NCBI GenBank assembly: GCA_951406725.2
Contig: OX597817.1
Coordinates: forward strand, 103,788,001 to 103,852,000
DNA: 64,000 bases
DNA from: Octopus vulgaris
Taxonomy: Eukaryota
Direction of reading: 5' to 3'
Positions within the stretch are counted from its first letter, which is position 1; every line of letters begins with the position of its first letter. Shown here in pieces: positions 256 to 63,168 of this stretch. Both the position numbers and the translations under genes were made by a program. Under the pieces are notes generated by a model. It saw only the letters and a list, made by a program, of their open reading frames with translations, was not told the DNA's origin and ran no database searches.

Positions 256-1873
256 TTGCGGCCAAAAATGTTCAGAACGGCATTGTTTTCGTCAGAAAAG
301 TAAGTATAAGTTTTTATCAAAGTTGTTTTATATTTTATAATTTTCACAGACAATAAATACGATATTATTTGTTATTGCCTGAGATTTTGGTGTTAATTTG
401 AGAGGATAATACAAAAGTTATGAATGATTTAGTGATTTACTGCAAAACCCATGGCGGCCAAAATGATCAGAACGGTTGCTTTTACTCTGTGTTTTATCAT
501 ATTTAACTGGCGAACTCTAATGTTTTGAATTTGTTTACGTGACGGTTCGTTTACTAAACATTAGTAAGAATATTTGCAGTGTACTTTGTTAATATAATGC
601 CACTTACTCCGTTACCAATTCGTCAGCAGATTATTAAGCTTCGAAGGAAGGATAATTTAAGTATTGGATCTATTGCAAAGATTGTTAACAAGTCTAAAAG
701 TGTTGTACATGGTATTCTTAAGGTCTACGCTGATTGTGGTTCGTGTGAAGCAAGAAAGCTTACAGGTAGGCCAAGAAAAACGACCAAGAGTGAAGATCGT
801 GCTATGGTAAAGTTGGTTAAAAAGGACAGATTTAAAACTGCTGCTGCTGTTTCTCGGAAAATGAGCATTGTATTAAAGAAAACGATCTCTCGAAAAACTG
901 TGTCTCGTCGTTTAGTTGAACATGACCTACAAGCAAGAGCACCTGCAGTGAAGCCACTGATCAGCTCCAAGAAAAAAAGTGTCGTCTTACTTTTGCAACC
1001 GAACATGTGTTGTGGTCTCAAGAAAAATGGCAAACGGTGCATTTCAGTGATGAATCTAAGTTTATGTTATTTGGCTCAGATGGGAAAAGGTACGTTCGTC
1101 GAAAAATAGGTAAAAGATTGTCGCGTAAATGCCTTAAGACTAGTGTTAAATTCGGTGGAGGAAGTGTCATGATTTGGGGAATGATATCTGGCGATGGTGT
1201 GGGCCCTGTGGTGCGATTACATGAAAGTTAAATGCAGGAGTGTATAAACAACTTGTAAAAGATCATGTCTTGCCTGTGCTGAGAAATTCAACTAAGCGAC
1301 CATCCATATTCATGCAGGACAATGCCCCATGTCACAAGGCTAAGGTGGTCATGAACTTCCTCAAGGCTGAAAAGGTTATTGTTATGAATTGGCCTGCTCA
1401 AAGCCCAGATCTCAATCCTATTGAAAATGTGTGGAATATTTTAGGAGAACGTTCGAAAGCCAGAAATCCTAAAACAACTGAGCAATTATGGAATGTCCTT
1501 CAGGAAGAATGGAATAAGATCACCCAGCAAGAAATTGAAAATTTAATTTCCTCATGCAGTCGAAGATGTCAGAGTGTGATTGAAGCTAAAGGGCTTCACA
1601 CTAAATATTAAATAATTCCAGTATTCTCCGTCATTTTCGATTATTTTTTCAACCGTTCTGATCATTTTGGCCGCCATGGGTTTTGCAGTAAATCACTAAA
1701 TCATCCATAACGTTTGTATTATCCTCTCAAATTACACCAACATCTCAGACAATAACAATTAATATTGTATTTATTGTCTATGAAAATTATAGAATATAAA
1801 ACAACTTTGATAAAAACTTATACTTACTTTTCTGACGAAAACAATGCCGTTCTGAACATTTTGGCCGCAACTG
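253..1873 (+). mobile_element. Tc1-family DNA transposon, IR/DR type, near full length
   Basis: ~225-bp TIRs (253-478 and 1650-1873) starting CAGTTGCGGCCAAAAATGTTCAGAACGG, each with an inner direct repeat GCGGCCAAAATGATCAGAACGG; TA on both flanks. Confidence 0.96.
597..1611 (+). pseudogene. Tc1 transposase (DD34E) with two frameshifts
   Basis: HTH and GRPRK motif, VHFSDESKF, FMQDNAPCH, SPDLNPIENVW (34 residues between D and E); frame changes near 970-980 and ~1228. Confidence 0.93.
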
Positions 1874-9735: not shown

Positions 9736-10512
9736 TAATGTATTTATTCAAAGCTCTATTGTAGTGCTCTCTCTCCAGTTGAAAACCACAAACGATGAAT
9801 TTCGAGAAATGTCAGACAGAGAGTGGGGAGAGACTGATAAAGACAGAAATGCGTACAGCCATGCAAACAGACGTGCATATATTTATCTGTACAGCTAAGC
9901 AATATGAGCATATTTTCCTACCTGTTTGCTTACCTATATATATATATATATATAGTGCGAAACGTTTCTTAATACAATTGTCATACAAGGGTAAATTTAT
10001 TTGTATATTTTTCTTTTATGTATTTTTAGTGTTGTCACTTGATTGTTGGCATTCTGAGAAATATTTTCTTTGTCGGCCTCTGGATCGATTCAAGGCAAGT
10101 ACCGACGTAGACGGAATTACAACTCACACAGTAAAGAAACGCGAACAATCTGATTACCACCAAGTATCTTGTCTAACGGTCTACACAACCTACCAACAAC
10201 ACGTGCGCTCGCATACCAACAGAGGAATCCATACATGTGTTAATATTAGGATTGTTAAATTCTAAAATTTATTAATAGGTCTTAGTACTTTTAGGAGATA
10301 AACTATTAAATATTGCGTGAGCACGGTCCTTAAATTCCCTGCGTGGCAGTATACGTAACTCGTTCGGTTCAATAAATCGCTACAAACGGAACTTGATCAC
10401 CAGTTTCCATTTTGCATTATATGCACTCATGTATGCATGCAAGCAAGCAAGCAAGTAAGCAAGCAAGCGCACACTTACACACGTGAGTGTATGAGTGTTT
10501 GAAAAAATACAT

Positions 10513-10656
10513 AGGCACAGGAGTGGCTGGGTAGTAAGTAGCTTGCTTACCAACCACATGCTTCTGGGTTCGATCCCACTGCGTAGTACCTTGGGCAAGT
10601 GTCTTCTACCATAGCCTTGTGAGTGAATTTGGTAGACAGAAACTGAAAGAAGACGG

Positions 10657-10694
<38 letters not shown>

Positions 10695-10893
10695 ATACAT
10701 GTTTGTGTTTGTCCCCCACTATCGCTTGATAACCTATGTTGGTGTGTTTACGTCCCTGTAACCTAGCGGTTCGGCAAAAGAGACCAATAGATTAAGTACT
10801 AGGCTTACAAAGAATAAATACTTGGGGCTATTTCTTTGACAAAAGACAGTGCTCCAGCATGGCAGCTGTCAAATGACAGTAACAAATAGAAGA
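10513..10893 (+). mobile_element. tRNA-derived SINE family A with internal microsatellite
   Basis: A-box-like TGGCTGGGTAG, B-box GGTTCGATCCC, CCTTGGGCAAGTG, internal (TA)n, conserved tail. Confidence 0.9.
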
Positions 10894-10904
10894 ATATATA
10901 TAAT

Positions 10905-11205
10905 ATTGTTTCCCAACCATGTGGTTCCGGGTTCAGTTTCACTGTGTGGCACCTTGAACAAATATCTTCAACTGTAGCCTCGGGCTGACCAAATCTTTGA
11001 GAGTGGATTTGGTAGATGAAACAAAGAAGCTCATCACTTGCGCGCGCGCATGTTTACGTCCCCTTAACTTAGCGGTTTGGCAAAGGGTGCGACAGAATAA
11101 ATATCAGGCTAAAACAAAAAATACTGAGGTCGATTCGTTCGACTAAAATTCCTTGAAAGCACTGCTCCAGCCTGGCGCAGTTTAATGACTGAAACAAGTA
11201 AAAAA
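10905..11205 (+). mobile_element. SINE family A, 5'-truncated
   Basis: Similarity to the other family A copies. Confidence 0.8.
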
Positions 11206-28158: not shown

Positions 28159-28844
28159 TATCTTTATTTTACAATTTTTCTTGAATTTTTCAAATTGCAA
28201 AGGTAATTTATAGATACCTAATAATAGATAGATAGATAGATACATGCACGCGCACGCACTCATTCCCTCATACACACATAAATGCAAAACAAGGTGGAAA
28301 AAATAGTACTCGAATACCAAAAGTAGAGTAATATGGTATTTCATTAAAGGCTAAAGAAAAAAAAAATCTTCGCAAACTGTTACTCAAATTTCTTTTAGTA
28401 TGATCACAACTATCCGACGAACGTTAACGTAAACTGAGTAAGAGTTTGTGAAGATTGTTTTCGTCTATAACAAACAGTATACACACACACACCTGTATCG
28501 ACCAGACTGTCTGACCACGTTGTGATAGTCAGCACAATACACTAACCACTCGACCACGGACCTTCACGCACGCACGCGCGCATGCACACACACACACGTG
28601 AGAACATACGTGCAATACAAGGTGAAGAAAATAGAACTCCAAAACAAAAGGTAAAGTAAATGTTTTATTGAAGCTTAGAAACACCTTCACGAATTGATAC
28701 ACAAAGTTTCACGTAACCGTTCGCACTACTCACGAGATGGCTATCTTGAATACATAAATACTTTTAAACTAATTGTTTTGAATAGTGACGACATTCTGAA
28801 AAAATGTGAAACTGAAGTTTTTTTTAAAGTTTCAATAAAATGAT

Positions 28845-31453: not shown

Positions 31454-31592
31454 AAAGTTAACGCTAACGGATTAACGTTACTTTCGTTACATCTTCAAAG
31501 AATTAATGGATTAATGATTAACGAAGTTAACTTTTTGGTAAACGGATTAACGATTAACGAAGTTAACTTTTCGATAAACGGTGCCCACCTTT
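31454..31592. mobile_element. hAT-like MITE terminus with subterminal TTAACG repeats
   Basis: Tandem GGATTAAyGATTAACGAAGTTAACTTTT units ending in GCCCACCTTTG. Confidence 0.5.
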
Positions 31593-37222: not shown

Positions 37223-38307
37223 AGGGATACATTTATTAACGTAGAGAGATAAATACAAAATACACATGCCATTGCATTTGACATTATTTCTGCTTAATGT
37301 AAATTATGAACGGTAGCTATGCGTGTTAAACCAAATAAAAAATAGAGGGAGAAGACACTGGAAGAATGAATACATATAATTTGTAGCAATTAAATGTAGG
37401 TGTAATCATCCTTAACGCGTCGATTGTAATTTAAGCAAAGTACGTACTGACATCAAACATTTATTCCTGTTATGCTTTGCCAGTGGTATTACTTCTTGTT
37501 TGTGTTTTGTTTTTTAACGCAAACTTCATGAAATGTATTAATCTCTATTTTCAGAATTCAAGTAGCATTAGTTTATAAAATACCTGTTTATAGATATGTT
37601 TAGATTAGTATGATCACAAACAGTAGGGAACATATATAAAAATTTGTATATAGAGTAGTTAGAGTATTTACCTGCGCCAAAGGAGCGTCTAATCCAGAGA
37701 TTCGTCTCTCCTTAATCGGAATTAATCCTTTACTGAATGAGATAGGAGACAAGAAATTAAAAATTGTAAAATGTATGACTTTATACTAATTCTCTTTTCA
37801 CTATATTTTAAATAAATGTATGCTAATATAATGAGCATTTTCTTCGAATCTTTTTTCACCGTTATCCATTGCTTGTAGAATTTCCAAGATATTTCCTTAC
37901 AAATAACTTTCAGAAGCAAACTTCAAACGAGTCTTTCACTTTTATGTCCGAATGCGCGTCACGACTGACAACTTCCCTTACCAATTAGTTGCAAGGAAAT
38001 GTTTCTGTCAAGCAACTATTTCTCTCTCCCTCCCTTCCTATCTAGAATTAATGAGTTGAGTCATGCTAAACTTGCTTTGTGCTAGCTAACAGCTTAAATT
38101 GCCGTTCTCTTTTCAGACACAATCGTTACAAATATATATTTATTTCGGTTCTTTACGGTTTCAGTTCAAATCACAGCAAAGTTACATGGTTAGTTTTGCT
38201 TTTCATCTTTCGGATGTCGAGAAACTAGAATAGTTCTGTTTTTGTAACTGCGTGAGAAATCTTTCTCATTCCCTCTCAGAACATATATATATATATATAT
38301 TATATAC

Positions 38308-38542
38308 TCTTTTATTCTTTTACTTGTTTCAGTCATTTGACTGCGACCATGCTGGAGCACCGCCTTTAGTCGAGCAAATCGAGCCCAGGACTTATTCTTT
38401 GTAAGCCTAGTACTTATTCTATCGGTCTCTTTTGCCGAACCGCTAAATTACGGGGACGTAAACACACCAGCATCGGTTGTCAAGCGATGCTGGTGGGACA
38501 AACCCAGACACACAAACATATACACACATACATACATACATT

Positions 38543-38604
<62 letters not shown>

Positions 38605-38745
38605 CGATGGGCTTCTTTCAGTTTCCGTGTACCAAATCCACCCATAAGGCTTTGGTCGGCCTGAGGCTATAGTAGAAGACACTTGCCTAAGGTGCCCCGC
38701 AGTGGGATTGAACTCAGAACCATGTGGTTGGTAAGCAAGCTACTT
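38308..38745 (-). mobile_element. SINE family A, head interrupted by a Tx1-like LINE
   Basis: Family A sequence ends at GGTAAGCAAGCTACTT. Confidence 0.9.
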
Positions 38746-41350
38746 TATTTCATGAAATTTGCCATGACGGCATTACAAAGAGGGGACAAAGACACAAACA
38801 TAAAAAGGTGTAGTAGCTGCTATAACGATTAAAACTTTATGACGACAAATACAATTTAAAAATTACAACTAACAATTTATAATTTACACTTTACAAATTA
38901 CACATTACTATTTATTGATTACATTATGACATGTTACTCATTGCGATTTGCAATGACTTCCCTGAAGGAAAGGCATCCGACCAGGGTAGAACCCTTGCTC
39001 TCTCTTTCCCTTTCTTTTCTGGACTCCACTTACCTGGTGCCAATCGCTCCCAACTTCCTTATCACAGGCTTCCATCTTTTCATGAATCTGTCTTGTGACA
39101 GGTACCTCTTCTCCAGCCTGACCTTCCCTATCCTGCTCGCACCTTGGACATGTCGGTGAGACGGCCCTTCCGTACATTGATAGTTTATCACAAACTGGTA
39201 ACGCCGCACGGAAGCACTGCCAAGCCAAAGATTTCTGGTAATTATCCAGGTACCCAGGCCCGAACGTTCTTCTGCCAAAATCTTTAACTCTGTGTTTAGT
39301 AGAGTTATGGACCGGAAGTTACTAATCTCGTCCCCCTTGCTCGGGTCCTTTCTGATCAGCGTCACCACCCCTCGGCTTGCAAACTTGGGAATTCTCCTAT
39401 TCTGCGGCCAATTGGCGTAAACGTTGGCCAGCAGGTGCCCGAACAAGTCTGGCATACTCTTAGTACCTCGATCACCTCATCGACTGTGATTGACCCTGAA
39501 CAGCACTCAGCCTCTCATGCGGAGAGACGCGACCGCCAGAGAGGAAGTCCCTAAGGGCCTCACCATGATCCAGCTTCCCGCTCCTCCCGAACAACCCTGC
39601 AAAGTGCTTGTAAAGCGCCTCACACATCTCGTCCCATCCGTCGACCGAACTCCCATAGTCGTCAATCAGAGACCTAATTGTGGTATCATTGCCACGCTGT
39701 GTTTCTACCGCACGGGCCCATCCGGCAACATTAATTCCCTCACGGCCCAATGTTCGCACTTTAGCCTGAACTCTACATCCCTCATGTTCAGATGGTCCAG
39801 TCTGTAACGATCTGCTAACTGAAATTTCTTCAGCAGATCTACGAGATGCGAATTTACTTTTCTATCGGTCGAGACAATGCTATCGATGTGTGCGTCACCG
39901 ATAGCGTTATAGTCTCTTAACACCACTAATGTCTTCGACGACACGATAAAGTTCTCTAGGCGCCGATAAAAATCAGTTTGTAATCGTCTAGCATAGGGTG
40001 CATAGATCTTGATCAACCTGAAAGCCTTTCCGCTGTGTGTCACATCATGGACGACCAGCCCACCTTCAGGGTCCGCATAGACTGTACTTGTCTGCAGAGC
40101 CAAGCCTTTACGGACAAATACTACTACGCCCCCACGAACTCCAGTCTGGCTAGGAGTCATGATTTTCTCATATCCATTCAGAAGGGGTGAGAAGGTTAGT
40201 AGACTGTCCAGCTTGGTCTCTGTAGCAACCATCACATGCATGTGTGATCTGAGGTCGTCGTAGAAACAGGCTTGTTTCCACTTCAAGCTCAGACCACGCA
40301 CATTCAAACATCCAAGATTAAGCGATGCCATAAATACAGTGGAGAAGAAAGCAAGGGCTCTACTTACCCTTGACTGATGATGTTGGGGCCGACCTTACCA
40401 CACGTAAGGCAGCCCCTTCTTTCTCCTCCTTCTTCAAGTACTCGGGCAGGGCCACAAGCCTCCTGAAATTTTCAGGATGCCTTTCCTTTAACTGTCTGTA
40501 TAGGGTTTCCCCTATACAGGCACACCTTTCATTTAAGTCCCTGTGTTTGGGAAAATGTTTGTGAGATGATGATTGACGACAATCTCATCCATATACATGT
40601 CTTTAGTTTTATATTCAATTAAGACTTTGGTGTCTTCTTTCTTTTCTGGGGCGATGGGACTTTTTTTTTTTGTAACATGTGGTGCTGTGCTGTTTTTGTG
40701 GGGGTGGGGTGGGGATTGCACATGAGCCCGTTTCCAAACTAATGTGCACTCCCTCTCGGACACCTCCATGGTGTCGTCTGGAGGAGTCATGTTTTTCTTT
40801 ACACTGGGTGCCTCAGATATCAAGGGAGTGGGGGCTTGTGTCTGCAGGGATTGGGTCGTTTTGTTTGTGTGTTTTGGGGACGGCACCGCAACAGTGGGTG
40901 GTGGGAATGTTTGTCTTTCTAGGGGCTGGGGTGTGTGTAGGCTTGGGGTTATTTTTCATAATTGTAGGGCCTAGTGTCTGTAAAGGTTTATCATCCCTTA
41001 GTTTCTCCTTCTTTCTCTCTTCACAAGGGAGCCGAATGTGTCCCTTCTTTCCACATTCATAACAGGTGGGCATTTTACCCTCCTCCTGTATTCGAATGGT
41101 CACATTCTCCCCCACGAGCACCCGGTCTGCTTTGTCCCACCCAATTTTGAGGGGCAGAGCATGTAATTTGTAAAAATTTGATTTTTTTCTGCTCTGTTGT
41201 ATAACACCTCCCTCGGGTCTATTTCAGGCGGCACTTCTGTCACCTTTACACAAGAAGTGCGCCTCCCTATGTATGTTGACAGAAGTACCACCTCCTTTAT
41301 TTTCAAGGGGCTCAACGAGTACCTGTGGACCATTTCTTCTGTTTTAAATC
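38746..41350 (-). mobile_element. Tx1/L1-clade LINE, internally deleted
   Basis: ORF1 CCHC knuckle CYECGKKGHIRLPC; ORF2 APE endonuclease (LNVRGL, ETKL, YAP, DYN); RT start NFRSITLLNTELKILA; C-terminal CPRC; 3' tail ending AATAAA. Confidence 0.88.
39705..40331 (-). pseudogene. LINE ORF2 APE-type endonuclease domain
   Basis: 208-aa ORF MASLNLGCLNVRGL... with APE motifs; joined to downstream sequence by a deletion. Confidence 0.85.
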
Positions 41351-43110
41351 TTCTGTTTTAGGCAGTTATTACATATCCCAGGGCTCTAATAATTACAGGA
41401 TAGAGTGACTGCAGATTTTTCAATAGTTCAGCGTAGGTGTTCTCTTTTTTACTGATCTTCAGCTTTATGTTAACATCTGTTGGAATGCTAATTTCCACTT
41501 CTGTGCACAGTTTCTCCTCTCTATCTCAAATCATTATATCAGGTCTGTTGTGTTTACATTTTATTGAGGTCTTCACTGGCGCATTCCACCAGTATTCCTT
41601 TTTATTATGAGTGGCTATGGCTTCTGCCATATTGTGAGTTCTTATTTTTTTGTCCTCGGAATTATCCTTCCGGTGGATTTAAATATAGTGTGTCCTAGCT
41701 ACAACGCCATGTCTCATCGGTAGATAATATTGTGATGACATTTTCGGACAACTGCTTATGATGTAGGTGTTATCTTCAGTGTGAACTCCACAAAGTCTGC
41801 ACCAGTTGTCACATTTTACCGCTTTTCTTACAACTCTATCCCTTTTGTGCATCAGGTATTTGATTGATATTTCCTGTTCCTAGATTCAAACGCATACCCT
41901 TCAAAATGGGAAGTAGTAATCTGGTCTATGATAAACTGTTTCGATGAACGATGTTACTATCATCTCGGAGCTTTCTAGTAACATATCCATGCATAGTCTT
42001 CCACTCATATAGACTCATCTTTTCATCTGATCATACGTTGCGGTAGAGTCGTGCGACTTCTATGGGCATGTGTTCTAGGTTATCAGACAAAGAGTGTTTC
42101 TCAAGGAGCTGCCTTCCATGTCTTTAGAATGTTATCAGCTTCATGTATGCAAACTTTGTCAAGAGATGCACCTCGATATTTGGTGGTTAAAAGATGTTGC
42201 AGAGGGGATATGATGCGACATTCAAAGGCATTTTGGATCGATGTTAAGCCTCTTCCACCTTGTTTTCGTTTAGGTAGAGGCGGTCTAAATCATTGTTTAT
42301 GTGGAAATTATGTGTGCTTGTTAGTATTTTTCGGGTTTTCATATCAATGGCTCGGTTCTTATATAACAACATTTATCCTGGCCAAACTCCGACCCTACAT
42401 CCTTTGAGAATGTTGTAACTAGGTCAAGTTTTCATCTCATGTATATTCTTTTCATAAAGGGTTAAGTCATCCACAAAGAAATATTGTGTAATTTTGTTAT
42501 TTCCGTTTCCTTGTGAACCAGTGAGATATCCTTCAAACTTCCTTAACATGAATGACAAAGAGTTTACAGAAAGTATAAACAACATCACAGAGAGGCTGTC
42601 TCCTTGGAATACGCCTTTGCGATACTGTATTCTATCGATGATAATAGTCACTCTTTGTGTTTAATTTCAAGACGGCGGCCCACGATGAAGTCAGGTCAGC
42701 TATGGCTATGACTATTCTCACTGGAACTTTAGCAACTTGGAGGGCTTCTAGCATCCATGAGTGGGGAACAGAGTCAAAGGCTTTCTTGTAGTCTAGCTAC
42801 ATTGATACTAGGTCCCTCCTATGCTCTCGAACCTGCTGTCTCCAAACATCATTTCTATCTCCTTATTTACTTTCTGTTGGTGGGAATTATAGTGATTTGT
42901 TTGTTTGCATGCAATAAGCATCATCACATTGATGGTCTTCCGTAAACCAGTTACCTTTTTCTCTCACTTCAAAATTATGGTACTTTCTTCATTTCGGTTT
43001 TATTTACTTTTTGAATATCATACCAGTATGTGGGTTCATTTCATTGTTGTAAATACTTATCACCAATTTCGTTAACAGCTTTTAATACCGTATCTAGTGG
43101 GTTTTTTCTA
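41350..43110 (-). mobile_element. Decayed RLE-type LINE (R4/Hero/NeSL-like)
   Basis: RT: KGVFQGDSLS, FFVDDL; CCHC-like CRLCG...SSC...RH; restriction-like endonuclease RPDIMI...EISIP...K. Confidence 0.82.
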
Positions 43111-43227
43111 CTTTGGTTGAGAATACTCTCTCGAGGAGAGAGTACTTCAAAGCCGAAGTTATTTTTTCTCAGAAAATTACAATAAGAGCAAATTTCACCG
43201 GCATATAATCCTGATTACCAATGTATG

Positions 43228-43258
<31 letters not shown>

Positions 43259-43940
43259 GCATGTATGTATATACATATCTGTATATATATGTACTGAACG
43301 AATAAGTGCCTTTCTGCAGGGACTCCATTTAGCTATATATCTTTTTAACGTGGACCCTTTTTTTTACTTCATTCTTCTCCAAGGGCTTCCCGCGAAAGCT
43401 ATCCAAGAGTGTGGTAAACTGATCTTCACTGACTCTCACAGCATTCTTCAAAATGTTATCGCCTATACTTAACACTAGCACCCTATAGACTGCAAAAGAT
43501 GGTAGCATTACACACACGTGCACGTACGTACTCACACACACAGATATACACAGGCATACGCAGATACACACACACAAATTATCATAAGCGCATATGCATA
43601 TTTATTCATATATGTGCGTATGTGTATGTATGTGTGAGTGAAGGCGTGGGTTTGATTCCACGGCAGAGTGGTGCTCTGACTCCTTGAGTAACGTACTTAA
43701 TTTCACTTTGTCCAATCTATTCACCCGAAAATGAGTATCAGCCTAGTGTTGGTGCAAGCCACTCGCATTCCGCTGTTACATTCTAAATGTTCTCCTGGGT
43801 GAAGGGTGACAGGACCGTGAGGGAGTCCACGTCTGCTCGCGACTAGATAGCTACATAGGTCCCTAAAGCTATTTGGGAAAAGCATCGTACATGTCAACAA
43901 GTCACACTCGCCAGTGAGTGATGGTTATGTATGTATATAT

Positions 43941-44177
43941 TCTTTTATTCTTTTACTTTCACTCATTTGATTGCGGCCATCCTGGGGCTCTGCCTTTAGT
44001 CGAACAAATCGACCCCAGGACTTATTCTTTGTAAGACTAGTACTTATTCTATCTGTCACATTTACCAAAACGCTGTTACATAAACACACCAGCATCGGTT
44101 GTCAAGCGATGGTGGTGGGGACAAACACACACACACACAAATATATCATATATATATATATATATATAATATATATA

Positions 44178-44227
<50 letters not shown>

Positions 44228-44365
44228 CTGACTTCTTTCGGTTTCCGTCAATCGAATCCACTCACAAAGCTTTGGTCGGCCCAAGTCTATAGTAGAAGAC
44301 ACTTTCCCAAGATGGCACGCAGTGTGACTGAACCCGGAACTATGTGGTTGAGAAACAAGCTTCTT
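43941..44365 (-). mobile_element. SINE family A, head interrupted by an ORF1-only element
   Basis: Ends at GAGAAACAAGCTTCTT, the site equivalent to 38745 and 62856. Confidence 0.88.
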
Positions 44366-46100
44366 TTATTCATTAAATTGGCCATAAAGGCCTTACAAAG
44401 AAAGGAAACTGGGCTGTACAAGGACATAATGAGATGAAATGATAGACGATATGATAATAATGAGGGCAACAGCAACGCCCGCCAATTGTTGTTTACCCGA
44501 GAACATTATTCTTTATAAGTATCATATTAAAGCAACAAATCATTTACATAGTAAAACATCAAGGAGGCAATAAACCTCTTACATTTACAGCACAAAAAGC
44601 CATTGTGATACAATAAACCTCTTACACAAGTCAATTATAAATAAATGAAACATTACAACTGAGGCACCAAGTTGTAATTATTTTAATTAGTTACAAATCT
44701 TCCTGCCCAACCAGACTTCTCGCCTCAGTTAAACAACTGGACGGCACCAAGTCGGGCCAATTTAGCATGAATCTGAAGGTATCCTTAGGGAAGGAGTTCA
44801 ATATCCTGAACAGGTCGTTCTCCCCCATGACCTTCACAGCCACCTGCGAAGTCCAGTCAGGGTCCTCCGTGCAGGACAGAATCTCCTCCCTTCGGCCCTT
44901 CGTTTTGAGCTTCTTAACAAAGTCCTCTAATGTTCCTCCCTTATGGAAGAGGATCACAAATTCCTCCTCCGTATCATGGGGGATGTACAGTTTCCACCGT
45001 TGGTGGCACAACTCCCACCAAAGGTGTTTCGGGACACTCCGGCAGTGTATCACAAACCGCTGGCAATGTCCCGTTTTTCTTTTTTATTTCTTTTTTTTTT
45101 CCTTTGACCTACGGGAGGGTGGAGTTCCTCCGCTTTGTCCAGTAGATCCTCCCTCCCTTCCGTAGCCTTTGGATCCTTCGGTAGTGGTATCTTTATCAAC
45201 TACTCCAGGGCCTTATTTTGGTCCTTAGAGCAGTTCTTTTTGATATGGCCCGGTTTCAGGCACAGGTGACACTTGAGGGGGGGCATCCCTCAAGTATCAC
45301 CGGATACCTAGACCCGGCCATTCTTAAAAAATCTGGAAATACCAGATTTTCGGCTGATTGGGTCCATATGGTCAAAACAGCTTTTGATCACTCCCAATCA
45401 GCCTCAGGCAGAATGTTCACAATGAGGAGCTTGGTACTGCTGCCACCTAGACCCCGGCGGATAGTATCCTCTATCCACTCTGGCTCAATTCCGGGTGGCA
45501 AACCGCAGACCCAAGCCCTCGTCAACAAAATTTCCTTGCCCTCCTGGGGCTGGCTCGCGAATTCGCAAGCCTCTTAGAGGGAGGCAAACAGCAACCACAC
45601 CGTTGCATATTTGACCCCAACCCCGAGAGATAAACTTAATGGTTGGCATATATTCTGCCAACCCCTTCTCAATCCTTTTTTTTTCCAAAGATGACGATGG
45701 TGTCGAGGGACTTGGAGTAAGTCTTCAACACCACCGTCTTCTTTTTAAATTCCTGTAACCACTTTTTGGGTGGTGTTATTTTCCATTCTATAAGTTTCTC
45801 TTTGTTCTTTGCCATGTGAAAACATTAACCGTTCAAGTCTCAAATTAAATCAAATTTGGAGGCAGCATACGCCTCCAAACAGCAATTCTCACAATTAAGT
45901 GAGAAAAAAAAATGCTCCACTGCAGTGAGGACTCCTTACTTGTGCAAAAATAAATATCACAAACAACGAACCCCCACTAGACCCAAAAAGCATAAAACCT
46001 TACCTTACAATAGAGCCTCTTTCAGTAACAACTTTCGTCCGCTGTAGACCAGCGTGGCGACTTCTATAGGTGAGTGAAGAAAACTAAACGACCGGAACCA
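44366..46100 (-). mobile_element. Non-autonomous Tx1-related element (ORF1-like only)
   Basis: VCGLPPGIEPEWI and CHLCLKPGHIKKNC knuckle; no EN or RT motifs seen; 3' tail homologous to 38746-38790. Confidence 0.72.
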
Positions 46101-46129
46101 GAAGCTCCTGTATATATTTATAAAAAGGG

Positions 46130-46392
46130 TAAAGGATAAAGGCTCAGTCTGTCATAATTGATCATGGGATTGCACGTAGGAAGTTACTCTCCGAGGCACA
46201 AGTCCGAGCACAGTTGTTTATGGAAAGGCAAAGGCTGATACAGCTTGGCACCAGTGCACCAGTGACATCGCAACTCATTTCTACAGATGAGTAAAATAAA
46301 GTGTCTTGCTTAAGAGCAGAACACACAGCCCGGTCCGGTATTCAAACTCACTGCCCCGTGATTGTCATCCTGATGCTCTAATCATTGAGCTA
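46130..46392 (-). mobile_element. CORE-like SINE (family E), decayed
   Basis: AAGTGTCTTGCT...ACACA...TTCAAACTC...CTCTAATCATTGAGCT is a reversed tRNA head plus CORE-like segment. Confidence 0.6.
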
Positions 46393-46429
46393 TGTGCCTT
46401 ATACAGACATGCACGTGTGTATAAGTATG

Positions 46430-47493: not shown

Positions 47494-47582
47494 GATGCTA
47501 TCCAACGACAAAAGCTGTCATTCATCAAATACATTGCTGAGTGAATACTAAGTGGCAGCAGTAAGAATAATCCTAGTGTTAT

Positions 47583-47786
47583 AGGCGTAGGAGTAGCTGT
47601 GTGGTAAGTAGCTTGCTTACCAGCCACATGGTTCCGGGTTCAATCCCACTAGGTGGCATCTTGGGCAAGTGTCTTCTGCTATAGCTTCGGGCCGACCAAA
47701 GCCTTGTGAGTGGATTTGGTAGACGGAAACTGAAAGAAGCCCGTCGTATATATGTATATTTATATATGTGTGTGTGTGTGTGTGCG

Positions 47787-50082: not shown

Positions 50083-50657
50083 CAGTAATCTCTCGACTAT
50101 CGCGGGTGTTACGTTCCAAAACCTCCCGTGATAAGTGAAAATCCGCGAAGTAGAAACAGTACAGTATATATTTTTTATCCTTTTTATAATTTGTATATAT
50201 TTATTTTATTATAAATGCAAAGCAATACCACACACTCGCATCCCCAGTTTCGTTTTCCATACAGTATGTGCGATTCTTTGTTTACTCATCTACGGTACAC
50301 TACGTATTTTCCTTTAATATATTTTAACTAATGTGTTATACAGTGCAGTACTGTACTCTATTTATATTTATTAATTTATTAATTTTTAGGCGTGAAAATG
50401 CTTATTTTACCACAGAAATAATTACAATCTAAAAAATATAAATACCTATCAGCCGCAGAAACCCGCGATATGCTGAGGAGTCGGCGATATAAATTTACAT
50501 ATATTAGCCAGAAAAATTCTCAATGTACTGAGTGCGTGATTGGAGAACCGCGATGTACTGAGTGCGTGATAGGTGAACCGCGATAGGTGAACCGCGATAG
50601 GTGAACCGCGGTAGGTGAACCGCGATAGGTGAACCGCGATATGGCTAGGGATTACTG
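50083..50657. mobile_element. Tigger/pogo-type MITE with TA TSD
   Basis: TA|CAGTAATCTCTCG...AGGGATTACTG|TA; internal GAACCGCGATAGGT tandem. Confidence 0.88.
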
Positions 50658-55132: not shown

Positions 55133-55535
55133 AGGCGCAGGCATGGCTGAGCGCTAAGAAACTTGCTTCCCAACCACATGATTCCGGGTTCAATCCAACT
55201 GCATAGCACCTTGAGAAAATGAGTGGATTTGGTAAACGGAAACTGTGAGTAGATTCGGTAGACAGAAACTGAAAGAAGCCCGTTGTGTGTCTGTATGAAA
55301 GAAGCCCGTTGTGTGTATGTGTGTGTCTGTGTTTTCCCCTGCCATCACCACCACTTGACAACCGGTGCTGGTGTGTTTACGTCCCCGTTATCTAGCGGTT
55401 CGACAAAAGTGACCGACAGAATATGTACCAGCCTGTAAAAGAAATAAGTACTGAGGTCGATACATTCGACTAAAACTTCTTCAAGGCGGTGCCCCTGTAT
55501 GGCAGCAGTCTAATGACTGAGACAGTTAAAGCATA
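55133..55535 (+). mobile_element. SINE family A
   Basis: Family similarity with small internal duplications. Confidence 0.85.
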
Positions 55536-58499: not shown

Positions 58500-60007
58500 A
58501 TGAAGATAAGGAACAATTCTTTACAAAAATGAAGATATTAGGATGGGCAATAATGTACAAGGGAAAGTGTCTTGTGAAGGAGCTCGATGAAACAGATATG
58601 CATACAATTTCTTTCACATTGTGAGGTCATTATTATACAGACTAAGCTAATAGTTCTGGATAGGTTTATAGGAAAGTTGCTGTGCTTTTCATATTTTCAG
58701 CCATTCAGTTTGGGGGAGAACTTTGTTATGAGGTATTTTTCTGAAGGTGTCATTTCTTGAGCATTTATAGAAGGGAAAGATCTTAAATTTTCCTTCACAT
58801 GTTTCTAAGTGTTTACTCAGTAGAATCTTTCGCAGTTCCTCCTGTCGGACATGTTGTCGGTGAATTCTGGCTCGTTGGCATAAAGAATTTCCAGTTTCGC
58901 CTATATAATTCTCCTTGCATGTGGGACAGGTTATGCAGTATATTACGTTCTGCGTCTTGCAATTCATGTCTGCATTTACTTTGAATGTGTGACCACTCTT
59001 ATTTGTTTGTTTTCCTCAATATATTTGTAGATGGGGTTACTGCAGATCCCACATCTACCATCTCCACACACTTTTACAAAGAATTCGGTTTTATTCTCTG
59101 ATGAGAATTTTGCCCTTGTTAGTCGTTTCTTCAGGTGTTTCTCTTGGCGTTTACTGTTTTTTATGCAATATTTGTTTAATAGGTTTCCCATTTTGGGGCC
59201 TTGTAAGACTATTGGTAAGTTTGAATGTTGAAACATGTTGGTAACTCCAGGGTTGTGTGTGTTTATGAAAAGAATGATGTTTTCTTTGTTTTTCTTTTTT
59301 TGGGAGTTCTGAGTTGTGTGATATCCGGTTTCATTGCTCTTGAGATCCCGTTTTTTATTAATTTGAGTGGTAATTTCTGTTCTAGTAGGAAGTTTTAAAG
59401 TTCATTTAGTCTTATTTGGCGTGTTTGTGAGTCGGTCACTATGCTGCATATGCGTCTTGCCATACTATATGGAATGTTTCTTTTTATGTGGGATGGGTGG
59501 CAGGAGTAGAAATTTAAGTATTGGTGTGTGTTGGTTATTTGTAGTAGATGTCTGTTGTGGAAATGGAGTTGTGTATCTTGATGTTGATGTCTAGGAAGGG
59601 AAGTTCGTTGTAGCTGGTATCTATCGTGAAGTTGATAGATGGGTTCAGTGTGTTGAGGATGTTGTGGAATGTTCGTAGATCTACTGATCTGTTCCAAAAG
59701 ATGAAACAGTCATCGAGGTAGCGTTTCCACTTTTTCTTGATGTCTTCTCTGAAGTCGTGTTCGAAGACTTTCCCTATTTCATCGTATAGTTTGTTCTCAA
59801 GGAAACCGATCACCAGGTTGACATATGAAGGTGCGAATTTCGTACCCATAGCCGTGCCTTTTATCTGTCGATATGTCTTGTTAAATGAGAATGAGTTTTC
59901 TTCGAGTATTAATTGGATGGCTTTGGTGATAAAGTCTTTTTTGAAACGTTTATATATGAGTTCCCTGTATTTTTCTACCCGTTGTTTTATTTCCTTGCAT
60001 TGGATCT
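58500..60007 (-). mobile_element. Penelope-like element (RT plus GIY-YIG), frameshifted, 5'-truncated
   Basis: YRQIKGTAMGTKFAPSY, RYLDDCF, LPFLDI, YLNFYSCHP...RRI, NVIYCITC...YIGETG...R..H. Confidence 0.93.
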
Positions 60008-60008
60008 C

Positions 60009-60068
<60 letters not shown>

Positions 60069-60477
60069 ATAAATACAAGGTTCTGGTGGGACATAAAGAT
60101 AGGGTATTTCCAATGAAGCACTCAACCCGAGTTCTAGGCTATCAACACTCTCGTATTCCAGACTAATACCGAATTTCTTCAGCTGTAGAAAATCCTGGCT
60201 GCACGACGGTGAAACCGTTATGTGGATTTAGCAAAGAGTAAGATATAATTCAAATGATAAGGCAAAGAAAATACTTTAACATAACTTTAATGATCAGTTA
60301 CAATTTTTTCCTACCATCTCTGCTTGCAATACCAATTTACGCAAAAGTTCGAAGTGAATATTTACGTAATATTTGCGGTTTTAAACATTAGAGTGGCACT
60401 TTATCAGACTTGCATCAAAAGTGCGCTCTTACACACACACACATACACACACACAAACACTCACACAAACATGTGTG

Positions 60478-62145: not shown

Positions 62146-62455
62146 ATAGTGAAGAACAAATACTGCTAAGTTGATTAAAAGCATTCTAAAAGTTAACACA
62201 TAAATAAATAAAACATATGCATACATACATATATGTACATACCTACAGCTATATGTATATATACATGCATATATAGGTACAGGACACAAAAAAAACGTAG
62301 AACACAACGAGAAACGAAAACATGAAAACAAAAACATGCAAACGGACTTTTCCAAACAACGAAAAAACAGAGTACAAGACCGATGCCCAAGACATTGTTC
62401 TGCGACATATCAAAGGTGGGTGGTTGTGGTTACCAAGAAACCATTCCAAATATGC

Positions 62456-62670
62456 TCTTTTACTCTTTTACTTGTTTCAGTCATTTGACTGTGGTCATGC
62501 TGGAGCACCGCCTTTAGTCGAGCAAATCGATCCCAGGACTTATTCTTTGTAAGCCTAGTACTTATTCTATCGGTCTCTTTTGCCGAACTGCTAAGTTACG
62601 TGGACGTAAACACACCAGCATCAGTTGTCAAGCGATGTTGGGGGGACACACACAGACACACAAAACATAT

Positions 62671-62713
<43 letters not shown>

Positions 62714-62919
62714 TACGACGGGCCTCTTTCAGTTTCCGCCTATCAAATCCACTCACAAGGCTTTGGTCGGCCTGAGACTATAGTAGAAGACACTTGCCCA
62801 AGGTGCCACGCAGTGGGACTGAACCCGGAACCATGTGGTTGGTAAGCAAGCTACTTTATTTCATGAAAATTCGCCATTAAGGTAAGCAAGCTACTTACCC
62901 CACGGCCACTCCTACGCCT
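62456..62919 (-). mobile_element. SINE family A with a 24-bp Tx1-tail insertion in its head
   Basis: TSD GGTAAGCAAGCTACTT at 62841-62856 and 62881-62896. Confidence 0.93.
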
Positions 62920-63168
62920 AATATTTTTTTTAATTTACATCTGGCTTTTATTTTATAAATAAATTCACAATTATTCTGGTTTCAGTTACATGTGCATTGT
63001 TTTATATTTATAACACATAGTAAAAAGCATACGAAAGTATTTTTAATTTCAAAGACAATTGTATATTGTTAAATGTTTGTTACAAACTTATTTTCTTTTG
63101 CACTGAGTTCCAGCTGAACGTTTGTATTTCCTATGTTTAAAGAGGTACCAGATGTAATCATGTAAGCT

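Follow-up and report, generated by a model that had tools for sequence, protein, structure and literature searches.

A 24-nucleotide LINE stub in an octopus SINE points to a preferred insertion site of an L1-group retrotransposon family

Introduction

LINEs that aim at other transposons or at small-RNA genes are already established (PMC4494074, PMC3706591). Elements of the Tx1 clade have been described within transposons, with Tx1L found in Tx1D, Tx1-Mar in Mariner-N4_AMi and Tx1-9_AMi in Harbinger (PMC4494074), and Keno, Mutsu and Dewa insert into U2 snRNA, 5S rRNA and the tRNA-Leu spacer, respectively (PMC3706591, PMC4494074). By one published definition, a retrotransposon is target-specific when more than 20% of its copies are flanked by one sequence type (PMC4494074). 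In Dictyostelium, the TRE5 and TRE3 elements, which combine APE, reverse transcriptase and zinc-finger domains, insert near Pol III promoters, outside the gene: TRE5-A lands 37-90 bp upstream and TRE3-A 14-228 bp downstream (PMC5006619). For elements with a loose target preference, the structure of truncated copies is well documented. In human L1, target site duplications (TSDs) are most often 14-16 bp long, and microhomologies are overrepresented in 5'-truncated copies (PMC2912911). Of truncated zebrafish Nimb-2 inserts, 95% are joined by microhomology or extra bases, and truncation is documented to arise when the target end anneals to the nascent cDNA (PMC4245944).

The genome of Octopus vulgaris is rich in L1-Tx1 families, which are active there (PMC13282606); the word 'target' is absent from the text of that paper and from one of its supplementary files. 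A LINE targeting the head of a SINE was not found in the full-text literature searched, including PMC5035012, PMC8869645, PMC4758252 and PMC3747384, a body of text that covers few subscription papers.

Here we describe a locus in a 64,000-nt stretch of the Octopus vulgaris genome (the window), whose repeat classes are among those reported for octopus genomes (PMC13282606, PMC8967140). A 24-nt fragment lies there between two identical 16-mers in the head of a SINE, at the base where two longer LINE copies end in other copies of the same SINE. Like the Tx1 elements that target transposons, the locus combines an APE-RT element of the L1 group with insertion, more than once, at one position of a high-copy transposon; the expected TSD of SINEU-3 in Mariner-N4 is also 16 nt (PMC4494074). 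The target here, however, is the Pol III promoter region of a SINE, and no SINE target is named in the text of PMC4494074; moreover, SINEU elements end in poly(A) (PMC4494074), whereas the tail copies described here do not. The likeness to Keno, Mutsu and Dewa lies in sequence-specific insertion into multicopy small-RNA sequences, although their targets are functional RNA genes or spacers and the SINE head has no tRNA score in Rfam or ARAGORN. With the truncated inserts of human L1 and of zebrafish Nimb-2 and ZfL2-1, the locus shares a TSD of about 15 bp, a putative nick at a TpA step and a short 5' microhomology (PMC2912911, PMC4245944). Those elements have a loose target preference, and L1 has poly(A), whereas here three of three copies are base-exact and the insert is 24 nt long. 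Unlike the Dictyostelium elements, finally, the insertions lie inside the SINE head, at an invariant position.

Results

A 24-mer between identical 16-mers in a SINE head

Positions 62841-62896 of the window consist of 16 + 24 + 16 bases, two identical 16-mers around a 24-mer, within the following arrangement:

62450-62856, minus strand: body and tail of the host SINE copy, with a B-box-like motif at 62815-62825, a microsatellite middle and the tail end near 62450
62841-62856, plus strand: duplicated target, the copy at the LINE 3' junction; its last TT (62855-62856) may belong to the target or to the AATAAA end of the LINE
62857-62880, minus strand: putative LINE 3' end of 24 nt, with an AATAAA-type end and no poly(A); it agrees with the tail of element A at 20 of 24 bases and with that of element B at 18 of 24 (below), with one gap each
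62881-62896, plus strand: duplicated target, the copy at the 5' junction; its first GG (62881-62882) is common to the continuation of both long elements
62897-62920, minus strand: first 24 nt of the host SINE head, with an A-box-like motif at 62898-62908; 92.5% identical over 40 nt to the intact copy at 47582-47621

The host repeat is about 430 nt long (minus strand, 62450-62920) and has about 15 copies in the window by blastn. We call it a SINE because it carries A-box-like and B-box-like motifs 43 nt apart together with a microsatellite middle. Its head gave no tRNA match in Rfam or in ARAGORN at default score, and a relaxed ARAGORN search was discarded as noise (200-319 calls).

To read the site in other copies, we considered 16 candidate SINE copies. 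The site was mapped in 13 and read separately in a further one (28843), giving 14 readable copies; those at 10906, which ends about 7 nt before the site, and 9500, a fragment without the site, were left out. Nine of the 14 continue across the site and on into the opening 24 nt of the head, with neither the 24-mer nor a duplication, and the 16-mer, double at the stub, is single in the intact copies at 10536-10551 and 47606-47621. Three copies break at the same base and continue into related sequence (38745, 44365 and 62856, the last being the stub's host). The other two (28162 and 28843) break within about 2 nt of the site and have unrelated flanks, which score 0 to 2 against element A and -2 to 1 against element B, too low to show that they belong to the same insertion family; these breaks are possibly older insertions of other families, or plain 5' truncations. 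As separate observations, AATAAA occurs within 12 nt of each of these two junctions (28163, plus strand, and 28842, minus strand), as it does at 0.9% of random positions, and two SINE copies stand in tandem at 10512-11203, the second of which follows immediately on the tail of the first and begins some 7 nt into the duplicated region.

A 16-bp direct repeat is not by itself rare in the window, which holds 15 exact non-microsatellite direct repeats of at least 13 nt no more than 300 bp apart, the stub's included; it is the content of the site that exceeds chance. When the 26 nt that follow the first repeat were compared with the tail of element A they scored 34, and the best of 127,771 other window positions scored 19; against the tail of element B the corresponding scores were 26 and 22. 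When a profile was made solely from the tails of A and B, the stub ranked first among non-training hits, but with an E value of 0.3, so the case for the stub needs sequence and position together. Profile and mismatch searches found no further stub and no fourth tail copy in the window, the next profile hit having an E value of 0.6. The identity of the two 16-mers provides no date, since it has a 29-34% chance at the host's distance of 6.5-7.4% from its two nearest copies (92.6-93.5% identity, the nearest, at 93.5%, being an empty copy). Short exact local duplications of 16-30 nt were also seen at 55270-55316, 31516-31571, 44568-44626 and 50523-50640, one of them within a SINE copy and one within the 3' UTR of element B.

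A first-pass annotation of this DNA had described the 16-24-16 structure and the resumption of the SINE head behind it. Letter-by-letter comparison bore out both, the head running on to 62920. The same annotation had read the 24-mer as an extremely 5'-truncated, target-primed insertion with a TSD, a reading that depended on homology between the 24-mer and LINE tails. Such homology was found with the tails that begin at 38746 and 44366 in the window and, together with the empty sites, it makes the reading of the 24-mer as the 3' end of an L1-group LINE, inserted by target priming and truncated at its 5' end, well supported.

Two long LINE copies end at the same SINE base

The related sequences at the other two broken SINE copies belong to long, decayed elements:

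38302-38745, minus strand: headless host SINE of element A, of the young type, ending at the site
38746-41310, minus strand: element A, a decayed L1-group LINE with internal deletions, sitting at the same SINE base; its 5' limit is approximate
43935-44365, minus strand: headless host SINE of element B, of an older type with 4 differences in the 16-mer, ending at the site
44366-46120, minus strand: element B, likewise at that SINE base, a decayed ORF1-like frame that has a CCHC knuckle, and a 3' UTR of about 330 nt; its 5' limit is approximate

Element A comprises an ORF1 with a CCHC motif, an endonuclease, the start of a reverse transcriptase, a zf-RVT zinc finger and a 3' UTR of about 190 nt, with three internal deletions in ORF2. 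Four collinear tblastn pieces align it with the 1145-aa ORF2 protein P0037: endonuclease (residues 1-182), linker (342-425), reverse transcriptase start (474-531) and zinc finger (965-1036). P0037 carries Pfam Exo_endo_phos, RVT_1 and zf-RVT, and scored 251 bits against human L1 ORF2p and 91 against R2, in a comparison set free of RTE, CR1 and I references. Element A's own zf-CCHC (E 0.0067) and zf-RVT matches lie below the Pfam cut-off, its endonuclease matches that of L1 only at E 0.15, and most of its reverse transcriptase is deleted. The APE, reverse transcriptase and zinc-finger pieces, together with the upstream CCHC knuckle, indicate that element A is an L1-group LINE and thus point to the 24-mer as a LINE 3' end. 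A full protein scan returned 312 relatives of element A at E values up to 0.001. A word-index search yielded no named relative, one of the 36 cluster members examined had a name ('exonuclease III'), and no named Tx1 protein was present among the relatives found; judging by its features, element A is a likely candidate for the Tx1 clade. Next to the 5' part of element A lies another decayed LINE piece (about 41310-43130, minus strand), with a reverse transcriptase piece that matches R2 proteins (E 0.002), followed by CCHC and restriction-like motifs recognised by eye, the latter giving no match in a search; presumably it is Dong/R4-like.

Element B has only its last 35 nt or so in common with element A (a 33-nt match to the A tail, E 9e-5). 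The likeness between the two ORF1 frames is weak, its score being reached by 15 of 500 shuffles, and tblastn with five ORF2 proteins found no endonuclease or reverse transcriptase pieces in element B. Its C-terminal 130 amino acids, which by reading appear RRM-like, showed no likeness to ORF2 and no relatives were found for them; in the Atlas, small bacterial prodomain clusters reached a score of 0.92 with them, sharing 86-93 of 256 features, a fold-level lead only. With ORF1 and a 3' UTR and no ORF2, element B resembles what we take to be the layout of HAL1 'half-L1' elements. It is a single decayed copy in the window, in which a deletion of its own and a family trait look alike, and it is possible that it represents a HAL1-like passenger. 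Directly at the 5' end of element B stands a second SINE-like repeat (about 46121-46403, minus strand), with A-box-like and B-box-like motifs seen by eye. A SINE-derived piece considered at this end was rejected, 710 of 1000 shuffles scoring as well.

Among the other contents of the window are a Tc1-type transposase in two reading frames (558-1611, plus strand; HTH_Tnp_Tc3_2 and DDE_3) and a reverse transcriptase fragment (58976-60227, minus strand; RVT_1, E 1e-4) with a cysteine motif downstream, which we assume to be Penelope-like.

Three tail copies share one base and one orientation

All three tail copies in the window (element A, element B and the stub) lie at the same SINE base in the same orientation. 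The window has 3001 TT|A steps, 14 of them such sites; the joint chance that the second and third copies would fall there, given the first, is about 2e-5, and it is about 0.013 when only the 122 CTT|AC steps of the window are considered, both figures assuming independent events and all counts coming from one 64-kb window. Flanking by one sequence type in three of three copies, albeit a very small sample, exceeds the published threshold of 20%.

Elements A and B represent separate events, because they differ in everything but the tail and their hosts are only 83% alike. Element A and the stub are less clearly separate, and may have had a common donor: their tails differ at 4 of 24 positions and their hosts by 7.4% (92.6% alike), an excess that is not significant (p about 0.10), but the two hosts do not group with support (bootstrap 44).

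The copies at the site thus comprise one truncated insert with both junctions and two distinct elements in distinct hosts. A second repeat or a remainder of the head was sought for element A, element B and the SINE copy at 28162, and none scored above shuffles; a partial match for element A at 40349 was rejected, being reached by 9 of 200 shuffles and lying inside element A. The stub is accordingly the only one of the three tail copies with a TSD. The missing heads of A and B can be explained by what adjoins their 5' ends, an unrelated LINE piece in the case of A and a second SINE family in the case of B. Taken together, these sequence comparisons suggest that the LINE family probably prefers one base in the head of this SINE.

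Both junctions of the stub carry an ambiguous dinucleotide

The three inserts are alike at their 3' junctions: each ends in AATAAA, with one or two A's beyond the two supplied by the target, and none has a 3' poly(A) or simple-repeat tail. In its exact 3' end, its 5' truncation and its target duplication relative to the empty site, the stub conforms to a target-primed non-LTR insertion. At the 5' junction, the next two bases of both element A and element B are GG, which are also the first two bases of the duplication. GG comes next at 4 of the 40 places where A could have been broken off and at 3 of 40 in B, a chance of about 10%, and its presence points to microhomology joining, which is suggestive, not proof.

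Because of this GG, the TSD is 12-16 bp long by sequence, and 16 bp if both dinucleotides were paired. The first-pass annotation had given 14-16 bp, having recognised the TT ambiguity at one end and missed the GG at the other. Its placement of priming at TT|AC is supported to within 2 nt, and its claim that the stub defines the target site holds for the first-strand site, on which three junctions agree, whereas the TSD length comes from one event. The stub is valuable as a marker since it is the only place in the window that keeps both junctions, and so gives the length of the duplication and shows the shared junction to be an insertion site.

Discussion

Taking these observations as a whole, we consider it likely that the stub was left by a site-specific L1-group LINE through target-primed insertion, with capture by microhomology at the 5' end. 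The element's endonuclease would select the site and nick the antisense strand of the SINE at CTT|AC, between the A-box-like and B-box-like motifs; a nick at a TpA step fits L1-type endonucleases (PMC2912911). The exposed 3'-TT would pair with A's of the AAUAAA end of the RNA and prime reverse transcription, and the second strand would be cut about 16 nt away. After 24-26 nt had been copied, the second-strand end would anneal to the cDNA through a 2-nt CC/GG microhomology, the parent having presumably carried GG at the break as A and B do, and repair would close the gap to leave the 24-nt insert and the 16-bp duplication. As a structure, the stub itself is an ordinary product of target-primed reverse transcription.

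The truncation could have arisen differently, with the same insertion cut short by a reverse transcriptase stalling at a 3' stem-loop. The tails of A and B have a predicted stem of 4 bp with a 5-nt loop, 15-28 nt from the 3' end, and the two sequences share one compensatory pair (U-A versus G-C). The first-pass annotation had placed the end of the stub within this stem-loop, which is so, at the boundary of the loop and the 5' arm, and had concluded that reverse transcription aborted at the hairpin. That conclusion fares poorly: the stub holds the whole 3' arm (62872-62875) and the loop (62876-62880), so the stem had already been opened, and an enzyme halted by the stem, which it must open to copy the 3' arm, should have left an insert of about 15 nt rather than 24. 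In principle, the enzyme could be held up by a protein that sits on the loop. The stem pairs in 100% of cells as against 10-50% for slid controls, yet the tails fold no better than shuffles (z 0.12 for A and -0.27 for B; 106 and 78 of 200 fold as well) and the single covarying pair in two sequences is reached by 258 of 500. The hairpin takes up 13 of the final 40 nt, so that one break falling inside it is nothing out of the ordinary. We regard stalling as unlikely, and annealing of the target end appears to fit the truncation better. The choice of site might also lie with the RNA: transcripts reading past a weak AAUAAA into the SINE would be complementary to the nicked strand and prime exactly there. 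This is compatible with the rest of the preferred explanation and would in addition account for the missing poly(A); all three inserts lie in the SINE orientation with one or two non-target A's at the 3' junction, and target-specific integration is said to be reinforced where an element is transcribed together with its target (PMC4494074). A sequence-specific endonuclease, the stated main determinant in the Tx1 clade (PMC4494074), gives the same picture, however, and both copies of the 16-mer are identical, with no donor-type base to be seen, which leaves a priming role for read-through doubtful, if worth keeping in view.

It is also conceivable that no targeting took place, and that chimeras of LINE tail and SINE body spread by retroposition or conversion, the stub having been copied from such a locus by conversion or template switching. 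Neither A nor B has the upstream head or the second repeat, which is what one would see in chimeric copies, and the hosts of A and the stub are 92.6% alike. Yet different elements at the same base of different host types require no fewer than two original hits, the nearest relative of the stub's host is an empty copy, its grouping with the host of A lacks bootstrap support, insertion of a chimera would leave two SINE bodies in tandem where one is present, and the missing heads can be accounted for by neighbouring repeats. In addition, the insert adds a run of four T's to the SINE sense strand (62866-62869), and Pol III transcription terminates at T runs, which should make the stub a poor donor; we think this origin quite improbable. 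Still less credible is a longer insertion with this TSD that was later deleted down to its last 24 nt: the three ORF2 deletions in A show that such losses occur, and the GG microhomology also suits end joining, but the deletion would have had to end exactly at the TSD boundary, leaving no 5' base of the element and removing none of the target. Equally hard to credit is a fragile palindrome whose breaks were patched with LINE RNA or by local duplication, with no LINE endonuclease involved. The young-type target is an imperfect inverted repeat (47600-47622 and equivalents), with both ends of the duplication near symmetric positions, and folds as a DNA hairpin of -7.1 and -7.7 kcal/mol (values that 14 and 9 of 200 shuffles match); in the copies at 28162 and 28843 the head is cut off no more than about 2 nt from the site, next to unrelated flanks, and local direct repeats are common in the window. 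The older-type target, however, folds weakly (-1.1 kcal/mol, 160 of 200 shuffles as good; the half-site in B's host -2.1) and was hit by B all the same, and each of the three inserts starts precisely at the element's 3' end, which target priming demands.

The insert widens the spacing of the A and B boxes from 43 to 83 nt and, together with the T run, this should disable the stub's SINE copy. More broadly, we tentatively raise the possibility of an L1/Tx1-type lineage, with at least three subfamilies and an ORF1-only passenger, that may be specialised on one base in the Pol III promoter of the genome's commonest SINE. Such a lineage would have hit 3, perhaps 5, of the 14 copies in the window, may prime through SINE read-through instead of poly(A), and would silence each SINE by splitting its promoter boxes. 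A site-specific endonuclease with a short, defined target would be of interest for targeted-insertion tools. Should the preference hold genome-wide, the SINE head would join the list of site-specific LINE targets, and many insertions into a constant sequence would make it possible to tell how far RNA structure and how far microhomology shape 5' truncation, two influences that varying targets normally confound. A lineage of the kind raised here would be a SINE parasite not described before, and its stubs would form a large natural collection of 5' truncations, all made at the same target sequence.
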